Source: Chlamydiota bacterium (GTDB taxonomy: Bacteria; Auribacterota; JACPWU01). Taken from it: a stretch of DNA of 32,000 nucleotides. This document shows, one piece after another, positions 4,367 to 30,068 of the stretch (within the stretch, counting starts at the first letter, position 1; each line of letters opens with the position of its first letter). Both the position numbers and the translations under genes were made by a program. The DNA lies in the NCBI GenBank assembly GCA_016196885.1, contig JACPWU010000024.1, forward strand, positions 45,994 through 77,993, written 5' to 3'. The notes under the pieces were generated by a model. That model was given only the letters and a program-made list of their open reading frames with translations. It was not told the origin of the DNA and did no database searches.

Positions 4367-4434
4367 TTGTTATGAAAGTGGATCATGGAACATGGATGGT
4401 GGATGTTGGATTCCTTTCTCTCGTTCAAGCTTGT

Positions 4435-4550
4435 GTAGTCGCCCGATTTATCGGGCAGCCCCATAAATGGGGCGACTACAAAATAAGGGAGGCGAGGTAG
4501 GGCGGGGCTTTCATTGCACACGATGACCCCCAAAAGGGTCATTGAAATTA
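4435..4550. repeat. Mosaic REP/MITE-like palindromic element, copy 1 (core plus module B)
   Basis: Core is GTAGTCGCCCGATTTATCGGGCAGCCCCATAAATGGGGCGACTAC (4435-4479). Module B is CTTTCATTGCACACGATGAcccccaaaagggTCATTGAAATTA (4508-4550). Both recur at 19702-19831, and the core also recurs at 29577-29714. Confidence 0.75.
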
Positions 4551-4567
4551 AATTGGAAGCGAAAGTA

Positions 4568-4652
4568 TAAGTGCTTGAGTGTCTGAGTGCTTAAGTTAAA
4601 GGGAGAATTTGTTTTTACTTAAGCACTTACGCACTTGTTAACTTAAGCACTT
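4568..4652. repeat. Long imperfect hairpin built from tandem GTGCTTRA-type octamers (array B)
   Basis: TAAGTGCTTGAGTGTCTGAGTGCTTAAGT (4568-4596) pairs with ACTTAAGCACTTACGCACTTGTTAACTTAAGCACTT (4617-4652). Confidence 0.8.
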
Positions 4653-5300: not shown

Positions 5301-6413
5301 ATGAAAACGTTAAGACGCAACATCCCTGTGGCAGAGCCAGACTTAGATTCCCGGGAGCGTGAGAAGGTTTTGGATTGTGTAGAGTCGGGCTGGATTTCCT
5401 CCATTGGGACTTATGTGACTCAATTCGAGGAAAGTTTCAGCCATTTTTGCGGCGCTCAATATGGCATCGCCTGTTCCAATGGGACCGTGGCCCTTCATTT
5501 AGCGCTTCTGTCTTTGAAAGTGGGGCCTGGCGATGAGGTGATTTGTCCTACTTTATCCTTTGTGGCCACAGCCAATGCCATCCGCCATACCGGTGCAACG
5601 CCGGTCTTTGTGGATTCGGAGGCCTTCACTTGGAACATGGATCCCGAAAAAATGGCCGCCAAAATTTCAAGCAAAACCAAAGCCATTGTTGTGGTTCATT
5701 TATATGGACATTCTGCGGATTTAAATCCCATTTTAGAATTGGCTCAAAAAAAAGGACTTCCTTTAATTGAAGATGCGGCTGAAGCCCATGGGGCGCTTTA
5801 TCGGGGGAAGAAAGTGGGGGGGATTGGAACGCTCGGCTGTTTCAGTTTCTATGGTAATAAGGTGATTACGACGGGCGAGGGCGGGATGGTGGTCACACAA
5901 GACTCCCATTTGGCTGAGCGCATGAGGCTTTTGAGAGATCACGCGATGGATTCAAAAAGAAGGTATTGGCATACAGAAATAGGGTACAATTATCGCTTGA
6001 CCAATCTTCAGGCGGCGGTAGGTGTAGCCCAAATGGAAAAGATCGAAAAATTTCTTCAAATCCGCCGGGAGAATGCTAAAATTTATAAACTTCTTTTGAG
6101 GGAAGTTTCTGGGTTGACCCTTTTCCCAGAAGCGACCTGGGCTACACCTGTCTATTGGATGGTCAGCGTTTTGGTGGAAGAAGCTTTCGGAATTTCAAGA
6201 GATTCCTTGATGGAAAAATTGAAAGAGAAGGGCATTGATACGAGGCCTTTTTTTATTCCAACTCATATGCTACCGTCTCATCGGGAGGAGGGTCCTTATC
6301 CTGTTTCGGAATCCCTTTCCAAAAAAGGGATGAATCTTCCTTCCTCTACGAGGCTCACGCAAGAGGACATTGAATATGTGGTTCAAACCATTCAGGAAAT
6401 TCGCGAGGGCTAA
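5301..6413 (+). CDS. DegT/DnrJ/EryC1/StrS-family PLP-dependent sugar aminotransferase
   Basis: Motifs CSNGTVALHLAL, IEDAAEAHG, and FSFYGNKVITTGEGGMV with the PLP lysine. ATG at 5301 is preferred over TTG at 5283. Confidence 0.9.
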   Translation: MKTLRRNIPVAEPDLDSREREKVLDCVESGWISSIGTYVTQFEESFSHFCGAQYGIACSNGTVALHLALLSLKVGPGDEVICPTLSFVATANAIRHTGATPVFVDSEAFTWNMDPEKMAAKISSKTKAIVVVHLYGHSADLNPILELAQKKGLPLIEDAAEAHGALYRGKKVGGIGTLGCFSFYGNKVITTGEGGMVVTQDSHLAERMRLLRDHAMDSKRRYWHTEIGYNYRLTNLQAAVGVAQMEKIEKFLQIRRENAKIYKLLLREVSGLTLFPEATWATPVYWMVSVLVEEAFGISRDSLMEKLKEKGIDTRPFFIPTHMLPSHREEGPYPVSESLSKKGMNLPSSTRLTQEDIEYVVQTIQEIREG

Positions 6414-7127: not shown

Positions 7128-7242
7128 GAGAACGGCCGTTCGTCTCTCGTCAAGGGCGGGCCTCCACTTCGATTCCCCTATAGCTTTTGAGTGCCATGAG
7201 CTCTTAAGGTTTTTAGGTGGTTTAAGAATGATAAGGGAAAAG

Positions 7243-7316
7243 TGCCAGGGGGGGGAGTCGAACCCTCGACCTAGGCCTTATGAGAGCCCCGCTCTAGCCA
7301 TCTGAGCTACCCTGGC
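7243..7316 (-). tRNA. tRNA with CAU anticodon and a paired 1:72, so elongator tRNA-Met or tRNA-Ile2 (the lysidine substrate)
   Basis: Reverse strand reads GCCAGGG TA GCTC AGATGGCTA GAGC G GGGCT CTCATAA GGCCT AGGTC GAGGG TTCGACT CCCCC CCCTGGC A. The acceptor stem is perfect, there is one A:C mismatch in the T stem, and no CCA is encoded. Confidence 0.85.
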
Positions 7317-7326
7317 TTAAAAAGAA

Positions 7327-7421
7327 GGGTTTAGGGTATAGGGTTTAGGGTATAGGGCATAAGGAATTTGATTAAATAAAATCCTTATTTCCCTAAGCCC
7401 TACACCCTATACCCTAAACCC
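7327..7421. repeat. Long hairpin built from GGGTTTA/GGGTATA heptamers (array C) between the two tRNA genes
   Basis: GGGTTTAGGGTATAGGGTTTAGGGTATAGGGCATAAGGA (7327-7365) pairs with TCCTTATTTCCCTAAGCCCTACACCCTATACCCTAAACCC (7382-7421). Confidence 0.85.
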
Positions 7422-7473
7422 TGTTTTAAAAATTAGCGGGGGTTGGATTTGAACCAACGACCTTCGGGTTATG

Positions 7474-8127
7474 CATACCACTACAGCTTTCGCTGCGTCT
7501 CTCAGAGAATTTCTGAGAGCTTTGTGGTCTGGACTTTCTCTTCACCCTTTCTACAAAATAGAGGAGGGTGCCTGCCGTCAAGTCTCTACGCCTTCTCCGA
7601 CGCATGTCAGAGCTTGGTTCGGGATTACCCCGCACGTGGCTTCCCCGAGTTTGACAGGTGATCTCAGATAAATTTCTTTATCTGAAGCCCACTGAAAAAT
7701 AAGATTCCAAGCATCGCGATAGTTTGCGGAACTAGGTTTTCGCTGTCGCTTGTTCGTTTCGACCATGTGAATTTCACTACCATAGTCGATGAATACGGCT
7801 ATAGGAAAGACATAAAACAAATTAAGGTCAGCCAAAAAAACCAGGGCGAAATCAAAATCTACAGCCTGATAAGGCTGCCTCAACATGACCCTACGATTTG
7901 TTTTCGTTCGGCGATTATCGACTACATAATTCCCAGAAGGTTTATCAAACCATGCTGTTTTGACCTGAATCTTGACTAAAGTTTCCTCTATGTCAAAGAC
8001 AAGATCATATGGAAGCCGATCGCCAACGGGTTTCAGAACACCCCAACCACGCTTCAGTGCTTCGAGTGTGGCTGCTTGTTCTGCAATGTCTCCCTTTAGC
8101 TTGGTACTCAAATGAATCTCTTTCTTG
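7474..8127 (-). mobile_element. Group I (IC3-like) self-splicing intron with an endonuclease ORF in the P1 loop
   Basis: The 5' exon ends in U and the intron ends in G. Core strings GTCAAACTCGGGGAAGCC and GAAGGCGTAGAGACTTGACGGCAG (core at 7573-7589) match the Azoarcus/Anabaena tRNA intron cores from memory. Candidate guide GTGGGCTT (7692->7685) pairs with GGGCT|CA. P2 hairpin is TCAGATAAAGAAATTTATCTGA. Confidence 0.8.
7578..8111 (-). CDS. Intron-encoded PD-(D/E)XK homing endonuclease (I-Ssp6803I-like)
   Basis: 177 aa with a TTG start 7 nt after AAAGAG. KGDIAEQAATLEALKRGWGVLKPVGDRLPYDLVFD...LVKIQVKT fits a PD...(E/Q)xK nuclease core. The last ~35 codons read through the ribozyme core. Confidence 0.7.
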   Translation of the reverse strand: MSTKLKGDIAEQAATLEALKRGWGVLKPVGDRLPYDLVFDIEETLVKIQVKTAWFDKPSGNYVVDNRRTKTNRRVMLRQPYQAVDFDFALVFLADLNLFYVFPIAVFIDYGSEIHMVETNKRQRKPSSANYRDAWNLIFQWASDKEIYLRSPVKLGEATCGVIPNQALTCVGEGVET

Positions 8128-19699: not shown

Positions 19700-19701
19700 A
19701 G

Positions 19702-19831
19702 TAATTTCAATGATCTTTCGAGATCATCGTGTGCGATGAAAGTTCTTCCCATCGTGTTTTTTTGTAGTCGCCCGATTCATCGGGCAATCCATGCAAGGGG
19801 CACACGGCAGCCCCATAAATGGGGCGACTAT
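19702..19831. repeat. Mosaic REP/MITE-like palindromic element, copy 2 (module B plus extended core)
   Basis: Module B is TAATTTCAATGAtctttcgagaTCATCGTGTGCGATGAAAG (19702-19742). The core is GTAGTCGCCCGATTCATCGGGCAATCCATGCAAGGGGCACACGGCAGCCCCATAAATGGGGCGACTAT (19764-19831). A further small palindrome GCCGACctcaGTCGGC follows. Confidence 0.75.
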
Positions 19832-19930
19832 AAGGGTGATTTTCATCCCCCCTTTGTGCCGACCTCAGTCGGCATGAATGTTTCATAGCAATGTGATTAT
19901 ATAAGAAAAAATCAGCCAGAGGTAGATTTC

Positions 19931-28653: not shown

Positions 28654-29985
28654 TCATGATTTTTCAGAGATATAGCTTAAGATTTTTTCAATGGCTGGTG
28701 TGAAGATCTCTGTTTGGGGAAGGAGGCTTAAGACAAGATAGCCTTCTTGATCAAAATGATAAAAATGTCCAGGGTGAATCAGAATACTTTCTTTTTCCAG
28801 GAGGGAAAGCACCCATGCTTCGTCCGTCAGAATTTTAGGGATTTTAAGGATGGCATACCAGCCTCCTTCTACTTTTAGACATTCACAAGTGGGAAAGTTC
28901 TGGAGGGTGTTTTGAAGGGTTTTTAAATTGGTTTTAAGTCGCTTTTTAATTTGAATTTGTATTGTTTTTGTATGCTTGAAAATTTCAGGAAGTGCTACTT
29001 GAATAGGGGTGTTAACGGACAGATAAGTGTCAGTGATGACTTCTAATCTTTGGCAGGCTTCTTGAACAAGAGATTCAGGGCCATTGATAACGATCCAGGC
29101 TAATTTCATTTGAGGGAGCGCTGCCATTTTAGAGAGGCCGTTCAGGGTAAAGGTCAAAACTTCAGAGCTTTGGGCAAAGCTCATTCTTTCAGTTCTGTTT
29201 TCAAAATCATAATCAAAAAAAACCTCATCTGAAATGAGAGCCAAATCATTTTGCTTTGCAAATTCAACCAGCTTTTTAATTTCTCTTTCCTTAATATAGG
29301 AGCCCGTTGGATTGTTTGGGTTAACCATCAGGATCGCTCGTGTCTTTGAGGTGACAGCTTCGCTTAGAGAGTCAAAATCAATATGCCAAGCATTCTCATA
29401 GGCTAGTTTATAGGGTTTGAGCTCAATGTCGTTCAAATTTCCCAAGAAGTCAAAAAGAGGGTAGCTTGGGCAGGGAATGAGAACATTGTCCCCTGGATTT
29501 GTGAGGAGTCTGAAAAGAAAAGAATAAGCCTCGCTGGTGCTAGAGGTGAGAAAGATTTGGTCAGGATTCAATTTTTGGCATATGCACTTGATTCCCCTTA
29601 GATAGCAAGCGCCATGGCAAGAAGTTGTAGTCGTCCCATTCATGGGGCTGTGCCCCTTGCATGGGTTTGCCCGATGAATCGGGCGACTACAAAGGGAAAT
29701 CAAGTGCATATGCCTATTTAATTTTATTTTCTGCTTTGCATAATATTGAACAATGGCTTGTCGTGCTGAGAGAAGTCCTTTGGGATGAGGATGGTATGAA
29801 TAAATGTGGGGCGAAGTTAAGGCTTTTGAGATTTCTTCGATAGGATATTTAAAGTTGCATCGAGTTGGGTTAGATTTTATTAGATCTAGCACAGGAAGTT
29901 GTGAGTCACGGCGTTTTTGGAGAGCTTTTGAGAGAGAATTGGTTGCCAGTTCCCAGTTTGTACGTTTAGAGAAAGAATTTTTCAT
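28654..29985 (-). CDS. Class I/II PLP-dependent aminotransferase carrying a 50-codon in-frame repeat-element insertion
   Basis: NPNNPTG and LNGLSKMAALPQMKLAW with the PLP lysine. The insertion interrupts ...YYAKQKIKLN|...|PDQIFLTSSTSEAYSF. Confidence 0.85.
   Translation of the reverse strand: MKNSFSKRTNWELATNSLSKALQKRRDSQLPVLDLIKSNPTRCNFKYPIEEISKALTSPHIYSYHPHPKGLLSARQAIVQYYAKQKIKLNRHMHLISLCSRPIHRANPCKGHSPMNGTTTTSCHGACYLRGIKCICQKLNPDQIFLTSSTSEAYSFLFRLLTNPGDNVLIPCPSYPLFDFLGNLNDIELKPYKLAYENAWHIDFDSLSEAVTSKTRAILMVNPNNPTGSYIKEREIKKLVEFAKQNDLALISDEVFFDYDFENRTERMSFAQSSEVLTFTLNGLSKMAALPQMKLAWIVINGPESLVQEACQRLEVITDTYLSVNTPIQVALPEIFKHTKTIQIQIKKRLKTNLKTLQNTLQNFPTCECLKVEGGWYAILKIPKILTDEAWVLSLLEKESILIHPGHFYHFDQEGYLVLSLLPQTEIFTPAIEKILSYISEKS
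29577..29714. mobile_element. REP/MITE-like element, copy 3: family core flanked by 23-bp terminal inverted repeats, inside the aminotransferase ORF
   Basis: TIRs are GGCATATGCACTTGATTCCCCTT (29577-29599) and AAGGGAAATCAAGTGCATATGCC (29692-29714). The internal segment is near identical to 19761-19831 in reverse complement. It is flanked by 10-bp direct repeats ATTCAATTTT (29566-75) and ATTTAATTTT (29716-25). Confidence 0.75.
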
Positions 29986-30068
29986 CTATGTTTTATTTCT
30001 TTGGGTTTAATTCCTTTATCATAACATCAGAATGGTTTGAGGTGAAAGATTTTGCGAATAAAAAGAGA

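Follow-up and report, generated by a model that had tools for sequence, protein, structure and literature searches.

The window analysed here is a 32,000-nt stretch of a bacterial metagenome-assembled genome (MAG), covering positions 45,994 to 77,993 of contig JACPWU010000024.1 (assembly GCA_016196885.1), in which a gene for a class I/II pyridoxal phosphate (PLP) aminotransferase carries an inserted 142-nt palindromic element. The window also matches part of contig JACOUD010000058.1 of assembly GCA_016178005.1, labelled 'MAG: Chlamydiae bacterium'. The element is very probably a MITE (a miniature transposable element with inverted repeats) of the IS1595 family of insertion sequences (ISs) which carries in its interior a doublet of GTAG-tagged repetitive extragenic palindromic (REP) hairpins. 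Our preferred interpretation, which we hold with moderate confidence, is that of a recent in-frame MITE insertion that is tolerated by the enzyme and resembles the Rickettsia palindromic elements (RPEs) in its effect. The host open reading frame (ORF), the element and its boundaries are located as follows.

28654..29985, minus strand: class I/II PLP aminotransferase ORF, AlaA/alanine-aminotransferase-like, 443 aa (393 aa without the insert)
29575..29716, minus strand: inserted element, 142-nt non-autonomous MITE, in gene sense TAGGCATATGCAC...GTGCATATGCCAA; absent from homologues, with two further copies in the MAG
29577..29599, plus strand: left terminal inverted repeat GGCATATGCACTTGATTCCCCTT, 23 nt
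29692..29714, minus strand: right terminal inverted repeat, GGCATATGCACTTGATTTCCCTT on the minus strand, with a single mismatch that is private to the aminotransferase copy
29567..29574, no strand: target-site duplication, left copy TTCAATTT, within the 10-nt direct repeat 29566-29575
29717..29724, no strand: target-site duplication, right copy TTTAATTT, within the 10-nt direct repeat 29716-29725

The ORF matches the Pfam family Aminotran_1_2 (8.5e-39) and is open over all 443 residues (...KQKIKLN-RHMH...CICQ-KLN-PDQIFLT). Its 120 best homologues, retrieved from 5.8 billion protein clusters, are nearly all 389–396 aa long. In an alignment of 65 sequences the insert measures exactly 50 residues, located between ...KQKIKLN and (KLN)PDQIFLT, and its columns are empty in the 64 aligned homologues (389–417 aa), except for one homologue with 5 residues at the C-terminal edge. 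The Pfam and PDB alignments are interrupted precisely at this position; in the superposition of sequences with E. coli AlaA (PDB entry 4cvq) the query runs from residue 84 to 141 where the chain runs from 113 to 121. An ancient lineage-specific loop was also considered as the origin of the segment, and is ruled out because the segment has inverted repeats, a duplication and further copies, and because 64 of 64 homologues lack it.

In gene sense the element ends as TAGGCAT...ATGCCAA (TAGG...CCAA), and its GC content is 51%, against 40% for the gene. The terminal inverted repeats are complementary at 22 of 23 positions; the pattern is found nowhere else in the window and gives no match in shuffled sequences. 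The flanking direct repeats ATTCAATTTT (29566-29575) and ATTTAATTTT (29716-29725) agree at 9 of 10 positions and have a start-to-start spacing of 150. A preliminary description of the window, made from the sequence alone, had reported 10-bp direct repeats at this site. These are indeed present, but they are better read as an 8-bp duplication (TTYAATTT) around 142 nt than as 10 bp around 140 nt, because the second copy and the parent IS family agree with the former. The 8-bp repeats are identical at 7 positions, and their one mismatch is a synonymous Leu codon change (TTA/TTG). The remaining claims of that description on the architecture of the insertion stand, namely the 23-bp inverted repeats, the KLN codons that occur twice (as seen in both the ORF translation and the alignment), the absence of an introduced stop codon and the gain of 50 residues rich in Cys and His (6 Cys and 5 His).

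Misassembly is ruled out as the source of the insertion, as both junctions recur in independent assemblies. The two objections foreseen in the preliminary description, orthologues that carry the segment and a chimeric assembly, are accordingly both answered in the negative. In Logan assemblies, reached via the neighbouring HigA and ParE genes, the right junction is present at 100% identity in three runs (SRR12113387, SRR12113417 and SRR12113416), including the private base of the inverted repeat, and the left junction is present in a contig of SRR12113387. All these contigs end within the element, at 29667 on the right-junction side and at 29600 on the left-junction side, which is the assembler break expected for a repeat.

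The outer part of the element is a MITE of the IS1595 family, an assignment based on the sequence identity between its inverted-repeat core and the ends of complete ISs, together with the 8-bp duplication. When metagenomes were scanned for the inverted-repeat core with TTGTAGTCG after it, one contig was retrieved, L053, which contains a complete IS with 33-nt inverted repeats beginning TAGGGCTATGCACTTGATTCCCCTA. Its transposase of 306 aa contains the Pfam domains DDE_Tnp_IS1595 (9.6e-30) and Zn_ribbon_IS1595, and has very numerous relatives; the flanks of this IS are repeated inversely, not directly. The same IS ends recur in the loci of proteins P0139 and P0182, and the loci of P0224 carry a divergent end, beginning TAGGGCTATTTACATTG. 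A second complete IS, in locus L054, is 1002 bp long and is flanked by a perfect 8-bp duplication, AAATTGGA. The 18-nt inverted-repeat core of the element, TATGCACTTGATTCCCCT, recurs without change at either end of the L053, L054 and L062 ISs. Homology of the MITE interior to the complete ISs was considered and rejected, since the inverted-repeat core alone matches. The element itself has no capacity to encode a transposase: within its 142 nt five of the six frames are closed, and the open one contains no known domain. In the window no transposase or REP-associated tyrosine transposase (RAYT) was found by Pfam searches on 37 ORFs or by tblastn with the L053 transposase.

A hairpin GTAGTCG...CGACTAC is observed over the transposase start codon in L053 (1230-1262) and in L054 (about 1035-1060), where CGACTAC encodes Ala-Asp-Tyr. 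Its arms are the same 7-mers as those in the outer stem of the REP doublet described below. This may be a coincidence selected by the search pattern, or a clue to the association of the doublet with IS ends.

The inner part of the element is a GTAG-tagged REP doublet of the type known as REPINs (REP doublets forming hairpins). Its components and the two related doublets in the window are the following.

29600..29624, plus strand: 25-nt spacer that separates the left inverted repeat from the REP doublet and contains a small GCCATGGC-centred hairpin; unique in the window
29627..29648, plus strand: REP unit 1, GTAG tag and hairpin GTAGTCGTCCCATTCATGGGGC
29649..29668, no strand: central short hairpin GTGCCCCTTGCATGGG between the REP units, from fold predictions
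29669..29690, minus strand: REP unit 2, GTAG tag and hairpin, GTAGTCGCCCGATTCATCGGGC on the minus strand; head-to-head doublet with unit 1
4431..4486, no strand: solo REP doublet without MITE ends, intergenic, between the ammonium transporter gene and a tetratricopeptide repeat (TPR) gene
19757..19836, no strand: solo REP doublet with central hairpin, intergenic, between divergent genes; closest relative of the insert core (~86%)

The arms of the doublet are 24 nt long, 88% complementary and 20 nt apart, a layout shared by both solo copies. The central hairpin is also found in the solo copy at 19757-19836 and is absent from that at 4431-4486. The preliminary description had called the core of the insert nearly identical to the palindrome at 19761-19831, which proved too strong: the two share only about 86% identity over 74 nt, with indels totalling 6 nt. 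In about 68 kb of the MAG there are five REP doublets, two solo and intergenic and three within MITEs; the window holds three of the five. Beside the solo doublets a one-sided module of ~45 nt (CTTTCATYGCACACGATGAYC, a hairpin, TCATTGAAATTA) is observed at 4487-4560 and 19700-19756, and the solo doublets and this module appear to be parts of a larger mosaic repeat, similar to a bacterial interspersed mosaic element (BIME).

The 21-nt REP end TAGTCGCCCSATTNATSGGGC occurs in at least 51 loci (L002-L052) in species-representative genomes assigned to many phyla; the source MAG is not among the matches listed. The matches listed include Stahlbacteria (many copies per genome), WOR-3, Zixibacteria, Poribacteria, Nitrospirae/Nitrospinota and Planctomycetota, as well as Elusimicrobiota, a bacterium of the candidate phyla radiation (CPR) and Doudnabacteria. 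Nearly all REP loci among these matches show the layout GTAGT-hairpin-spacer-hairpin-ACTAC, and across loci the REP stems covary around a constant GAT-TY-ATC apex; examples are found at L012 1576-1625, at L026 1073 and 4715 and at L045 7903. No RAYT-like protein cluster is present next to the REPs in the 51 foreign loci, as judged by all-against-all BLASTP. The GTAG-REP class has been described before, including intragenic copies that encode 20–82 aa and are found above all in Opitutus terrae and R. conorii; intragenic dimers with a coding length of 20–30 aa are known as well, notably from O. terrae, a PVC bacterium (PMC3733652).

The wide distribution of the motif raised the question of a CRISPR repeat, which is rejected: most loci hold one or two copies, and the exception, L037, is without spacers. 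At this locus (5870-6040, from a MAG labelled 'bacterium', MFD12922) a head-to-tail array is observed of at least five units of 34 nt, each consisting of the REP TGTAGTCGCCCRATTYATCGGGC followed by AGGTTTCTCTC, and the array is not a CRISPR because unique spacers are absent. A structured RNA gene or ribozyme is rejected as well: Rfam gives nothing at the gathering threshold and noise alone at E < 1, and a consensus scan finds no promoter-like site inside the element.

A degenerate homologue of the whole composite was identified at L006 3866-3995 (CAZOWS010000167.1, a bin labelled Actinomycetota), with 79% identity over 113 nt. It contains, in this order, an IS1595-type end, a 25-nt spacer, the REP doublet and a decayed second end; the spacer thus has the same length and position as that in the aminotransferase element. 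The L006 copy is intergenic, between genes for a biotin carboxylase and a biotin-carrier-like protein in a genome of 55% GC, with a possible flanking repeat ATAGAGCTATG. The composite is therefore older than its arrival in the Chlamydiae genome.

Two more complete copies of the 142-nt unit are present elsewhere in the MAG, in a 20-kb locus (L071) on contig JACOUD010000008.1. This contig was reached by a peptide search with 49 inserted residues, which led to protein P0241.

L071 9872-10009: intergenic copy
L071 4256-4393: copy within a 448-aa Fic-domain ORF, with orientation and frame identical to those in the aminotransferase gene (NRHMHLIPLCSRPIHRANPCKGHSPMNGATTTSCHGACYLRGIKCICQ)

Within about 60 kb of the MAG, the three copies have different flanks and differ from each other at 2–3 of 142 positions (97.9–98.6% identity), and the inverted repeats of the two L071 copies are complementary at 23 of 23 and 22 of 23 positions. 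The Fic copy is flanked by the perfect 8-nt repeat TTAAAAAA, or by 10 nt when read as ATTAAAAAAT, and here LKN is encoded twice. Its insert is located between the Fic core and the C-terminal winged helix-turn-helix (wHTH) domain, where the query runs from residue 311 to 382 against 284 to 302 in the chain of PDB entry 8cil. P0241 (HYS08_01330, L071 9943-10197) is an 84-aa 'hypothetical protein' and represents a spurious ORF that starts from a Met inside the intergenic copy. Among 1.84 billion cluster representatives P0241 was the only other protein to carry the insert peptide, next to two irrelevant repeat proteins, in a search that is uninformative on decorated proteins because undecorated cluster representatives hide them. 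The composite MITE has thus been recently active in this MAG and has produced at least two in-frame, stop-free insertions in positions between structural elements or domains.

A second, unrelated family of palindromic MITEs is observed in the same locus (L071 1895-2076 and 6546-6727), with 25-nt inverted repeats TAACCCGCATTTCTCATCAGATTTC. It measures 178 nt, or 180 nt with its TA duplication, has a predicted folding energy of -117 kcal/mol, and has two copies that share about 92% identity. One of these lies in frame in another Fic-domain ORF (L071 1022-2131, minus strand), which has a non-canonical start and may be truncated.

As the element and its duplication together amount to 150 nt, any insertion restores the downstream reading frame. 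Out of the six possible combinations of orientation and frame, one is open and five have stops inside the element, and the aminotransferase and Fic copies both use the open one. A model of the 443-aa protein was generated with AlphaFold2 (AF2). The model has a mean predicted local distance difference test score (pLDDT) of 87.5 and a predicted template modelling (pTM) score of 0.85, and matches E. coli AlaA (4cvq, TM-score 0.83) and the alanine aminotransferase from P. furiosus (1xi9), with target TM-scores of 0.83–0.89. The insert is modelled between a long helix (residues 72-97) and a strand (residues 144-147) that is the first of the PLP domain. For residues 97-135 the pLDDT is below 50, and the insert is predicted to be a disordered excursion, which probably sits in a surface loop. 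Strand 144-147 leads into the conserved residues S149-T150-S151, about 10 residues after the insert. Enzymes of fold type I usually bind the phosphate of their cofactor where this strand has its C-terminal end, and S149-T150-S151 would thus be the motif that binds the PLP phosphate. Because of this usual geometry the insert would project from the opposite, outer edge of the sheet, away from the cofactor.

All 63 columns that are invariant in the 64 homologues are kept, 14 of 14 on the N-terminal side of the insert and 49 of 49 on the C-terminal side. The aminotransferase copy has 2 private substitutions in 142 nt and 1 in the duplication, a divergence of ~2%; under neutrality about 20 changes would then be expected over the 1.18 kb of the gene, an estimate from three events. 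The intact ORF with all its invariant residues is therefore mildly suggestive of continued purifying selection. Of the two outcomes that the preliminary description had left side by side, a tolerated loop and an inactivated gene, the evidence from sequence leans towards the former, and it seems rather probable that the enzyme is still expressed and functional.

According to this interpretation, the non-autonomous IS1595-type MITE, with its interior head-to-head doublet of GTAG-tagged REP hairpins, would have been mobilised in trans by an IS1595-type DDE transposase, which moved it into the aminotransferase gene. A staggered cut would have duplicated 8 bp of the AT-rich target (TTYAATTT). The increment of 150 nt and the use of the only stop-free reading would keep the ORF open at the cost of 50 additional residues, and the enzyme would still be made and folded and retain its activity, with the insert as a tolerated, RPE-like 'decoration'. 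The very stable hairpin that the element is predicted to form in the mRNA may lower expression.

A number of observations weigh against this interpretation, and several of them favour the alternative that the gene has recently been inactivated, by misfolding, by loss of dimerisation, or by a block or cleavage of the mRNA at the hairpin, with the open frame a matter of luck and of the short time since the insertion. This is possible, but we consider it rather unlikely. An open reading is obtained by chance in 1 of 6 (17%) genic insertions, and only the Fic copy counts as unbiased, since the aminotransferase copy was noticed for being open. The copies are about 98–99% identical, hence the insertions are recent, and in a young insertion the intact ORF is weak evidence of continued selection. 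Both private substitutions within the element are non-synonymous (Ser/Pro and Thr/Ala), so that the peptide shows no sign of selection, and the low model confidence for the insert is explained by the lack of alignment information that covers it. In the sense of the mRNA the 160-nt region has a predicted folding energy of -79.5 kcal/mol (z = -10.3), in which the near-perfect 23-bp duplex of the inverted repeats runs on into the REP stems; such a duplex could block translation or attract RNase III and silence the gene despite its open frame, by analogy with transcribed Neisseria MITEs, of which the hairpins can be processed by RNases (cited in PMC3733652). Public annotation also misses the full-length ORF. 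Inactivation is opposed by the 63 of 63 invariant positions that are kept and by the absence of any frameshift or stop in 1.18 kb. Three changes in the ~158 nt of element and duplication imply roughly 20 neutral changes in the gene as well as indels, and an intact ORF would then be unlikely under neutrality, even if the count is tiny. Moreover, the one mismatch in the duplication is synonymous, no copy was seen in a disrupted gene, and the Fic copy too is in the only open reading and in an inter-domain linker, which fits a filter against disruptive insertions. Other points concern the tolerated-MITE interpretation at the level of the element rather than of the gene. The similarity between the element and the ISs is limited to the inverted-repeat core, and the ISs that share this core belong to other, GC-rich organisms (61% GC, against 42–43%); no transposase of any kind and no RAYT is found in the ~68 kb of genome examined; and the intergenic L071 copy has no recognisable duplication.

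The three remaining alternatives are far less probable. The insert might be a REPIN placed by a RAYT, a tyrosine transposase of the HUH type, on single-stranded DNA, the outer repeats being merely an extra palindrome. The interior has the classical form of a GTAG REP doublet, doublets that stand alone and lack the outer repeats are present both in the window and across many phyla, and intragenic GTAG REPs are documented (PMC3733652), yet this mode of insertion is very unlikely: the three full copies share precise outer ends, which match the DDE-type inverted repeats present at both ends of IS1595-family ISs, the duplication is perfect in the Fic copy and 7/8 in the aminotransferase copy, and the ~68 kb contain no RAYT. 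HUH transposition of the IS200/IS605 type is not known to make a target duplication. It is equally improbable that the added 50 residues are adaptive, for example as a loop for metal binding or regulation, and are now maintained by selection. Although 6 Cys and 5 His per 50 residues would suit such a role, and the same peptide is present in a second (Fic) protein, this content is the direct translation of palindromes rich in GCA, TGC, CAT and ATG, the peptide differs among the copies by non-synonymous changes only, its pLDDT is below 50, and apart from the spurious P0241 it is found in none of the cluster representatives searched. The finding that RPE-decorated Rickettsia proteins are expressed (PMC3733652, PMC10969869) speaks in favour of such a gain. 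Least probable of all, to the point of being negligible, is a misjoin of 150 nt into the gene at a repeat during assembly or binning. The source is a metagenome-assembled genome and short-read assemblers break at the element, but three runs, assembled independently, agree exactly on the right junction, including the private variant, one of them also carries the left junction, and the precise duplication restores the orthologous KLN codons. In addition, the same product is encoded on two NCBI contigs, and the protein collection contains no uninterrupted allele of the gene, the next match being only 55% identical.

The insertion resembles the RPEs (RPE-1 and others) in many respects: these are palindromes of ~150 bp in an intracellular lineage, inserted repeatedly in unrelated genes, in frame and without stops, at sites presumed compatible with the protein fold, where they add ~50 residues (PMC10969869, PMC3733652). 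The parallel drawn in the preliminary description is borne out by the 150 nt, or 50 aa, found in frame in both the aminotransferase and the Fic protein; two of the three copies lie in genes whose reading continues through them in the sole open frame, a similarity in behaviour and not in family membership. RPEs are not known to have clear DDE-type inverted repeats, a target duplication or a parent IS family, all three of which can be recognised for the aminotransferase element. The lineage differs too, and a sequence relation to RPEs is not expected; R. conorii has dozens of genic copies, compared with the two found to date for this element.

With the GTAG REPs and REPINs (PMC3733652, PMC3116915) the element shares the GTAG tag followed by a GC-rich hairpin, the arrangement as an inverted pair with GTAG on the outside ('HH dimer'), the occurrence in multiple copies and the covarying stems. 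In contrast to these, the doublet is here packaged in a DDE-type MITE with a target duplication, and there is no RAYT in the ~68 kb. REPIN-RAYT systems have been described as inherited mostly vertically (bioRxiv 10.1101/2022.05.22.493013), whereas the identical 21-nt REP is present here in genomes assigned to many phyla. The term 'REP/MITE-like' used in the preliminary description applies in both its parts, with an IS1595-family MITE outside and a GTAG REP doublet inside, in multiple copies in the genome. In common with the IS1595-family ISs of L053, L054 and L062, which have GGCnnTG-type ends, the element has the 18-nt core, a TA/TT-GG terminus and an 8-bp duplication; it differs from them by the lack of a transposase gene, by its length of 142 nt against about 1 kb, and by an unrelated interior. 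Similarities are also evident with QMITE1 and QMITE2 from Coxiella burnetii, ERIC, BOX and Correia/NEMIS elements, which are small and non-autonomous and have inverted and direct repeats; some of these are located in frame within ORFs or change the ends of proteins, and at the RNA level they fold into strong hairpins (PMC5896051, PMC10969869). In functional genes the QMITEs are found mainly at 3' ends, whereas the present element is internal in a conserved enzyme and has another parent IS family. Previous work has described RPEs, intragenic REPs and ORF-fusing MITEs (PMC10969869, PMC3733652, PMC5896051); the element groups with these and introduces no new principle.

The insertion has consequences for the public annotation of the gene, in the region of which two further features were located.

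28654..29643, minus strand: publicly annotated 329-aa product (MNGTTTT...), starting at a Met inside the element
30018..30046, minus strand: promoter-like site upstream of the full-length start codon at 29985, TTCACC-17-TATGAT with TG; found by consensus scan, a pattern match only

The 329-aa product corresponds to P0001, the sole 100% match to the aminotransferase (74% coverage), and is probably an annotation artefact caused by the insertion. The remainder of the window is ordinary chromosomal DNA. It carries genes for a P-II protein, the ammonium transporter, a DegT aminotransferase, a glycosyltransferase, TilS, a haem-biosynthesis cluster, MurA, NAD synthase, two toxin-antitoxin pairs and agmatine deiminase; one tRNA-Met gene is present.

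Intergenic palindromes built from short tandem units are observed at 7321-7427, and also at 1499-1583 and 4578-4635. One of these has 53-nt arms of TTTAGGG/TATAGGG-like heptamers and lies beside the tRNA-Met gene (7242-7316), and another contains GTCGTGA-type repeats; similar heptamer runs border the REPs in Stahlbacteria loci. The segment 7437-7500 (minus strand) resembles the 3' half of a tRNA, with a T-arm GGTTCAAATCC and the acceptor 3' strand, and is called by neither ARAGORN nor Rfam. It adjoins a gene for a PD-(D/E)XK endonuclease (7578-8111) and could be a tRNA fragment or an integration scar.

In-frame selfish palindromic DNA in essential-looking genes is best documented in Rickettsia, and is here extended to an uncultured member of the Chlamydiae, likewise a largely intracellular phylum; that such insertions might be a general route of protein evolution has been raised in a review (PMC10969869). 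Unlike for the RPEs, the identifiable IS1595-type ends and the 8-bp duplication make questions of origin and mobilisation tractable. The element also shows how automatic annotation can be misled, into a truncated 329-aa product at one copy and, at another, into an 84-aa ORF that is spurious. As a rule REP hairpins and MITEs are treated as separate classes of repeats, and their combination into one travelling, mobile unit was less expected, as were its recurrence in a Chlamydiae genome beside a second in-frame MITE family and the occurrence of the same REP sequence in many phyla. It is tempting, if doubtful, to speculate that this environmental Chlamydiae lineage has evolved its own RPE-like regime of 'protein decoration', in which several palindromic MITE families with increments in multiples of three (150 and 180 nt) are routinely read through in proteins, and that the MITE-packaged REP doublet serves as a horizontal vehicle. 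If so, the packaging of REPs in MITEs would help to account for the presence of an identical 21-nt REP across many phyla.

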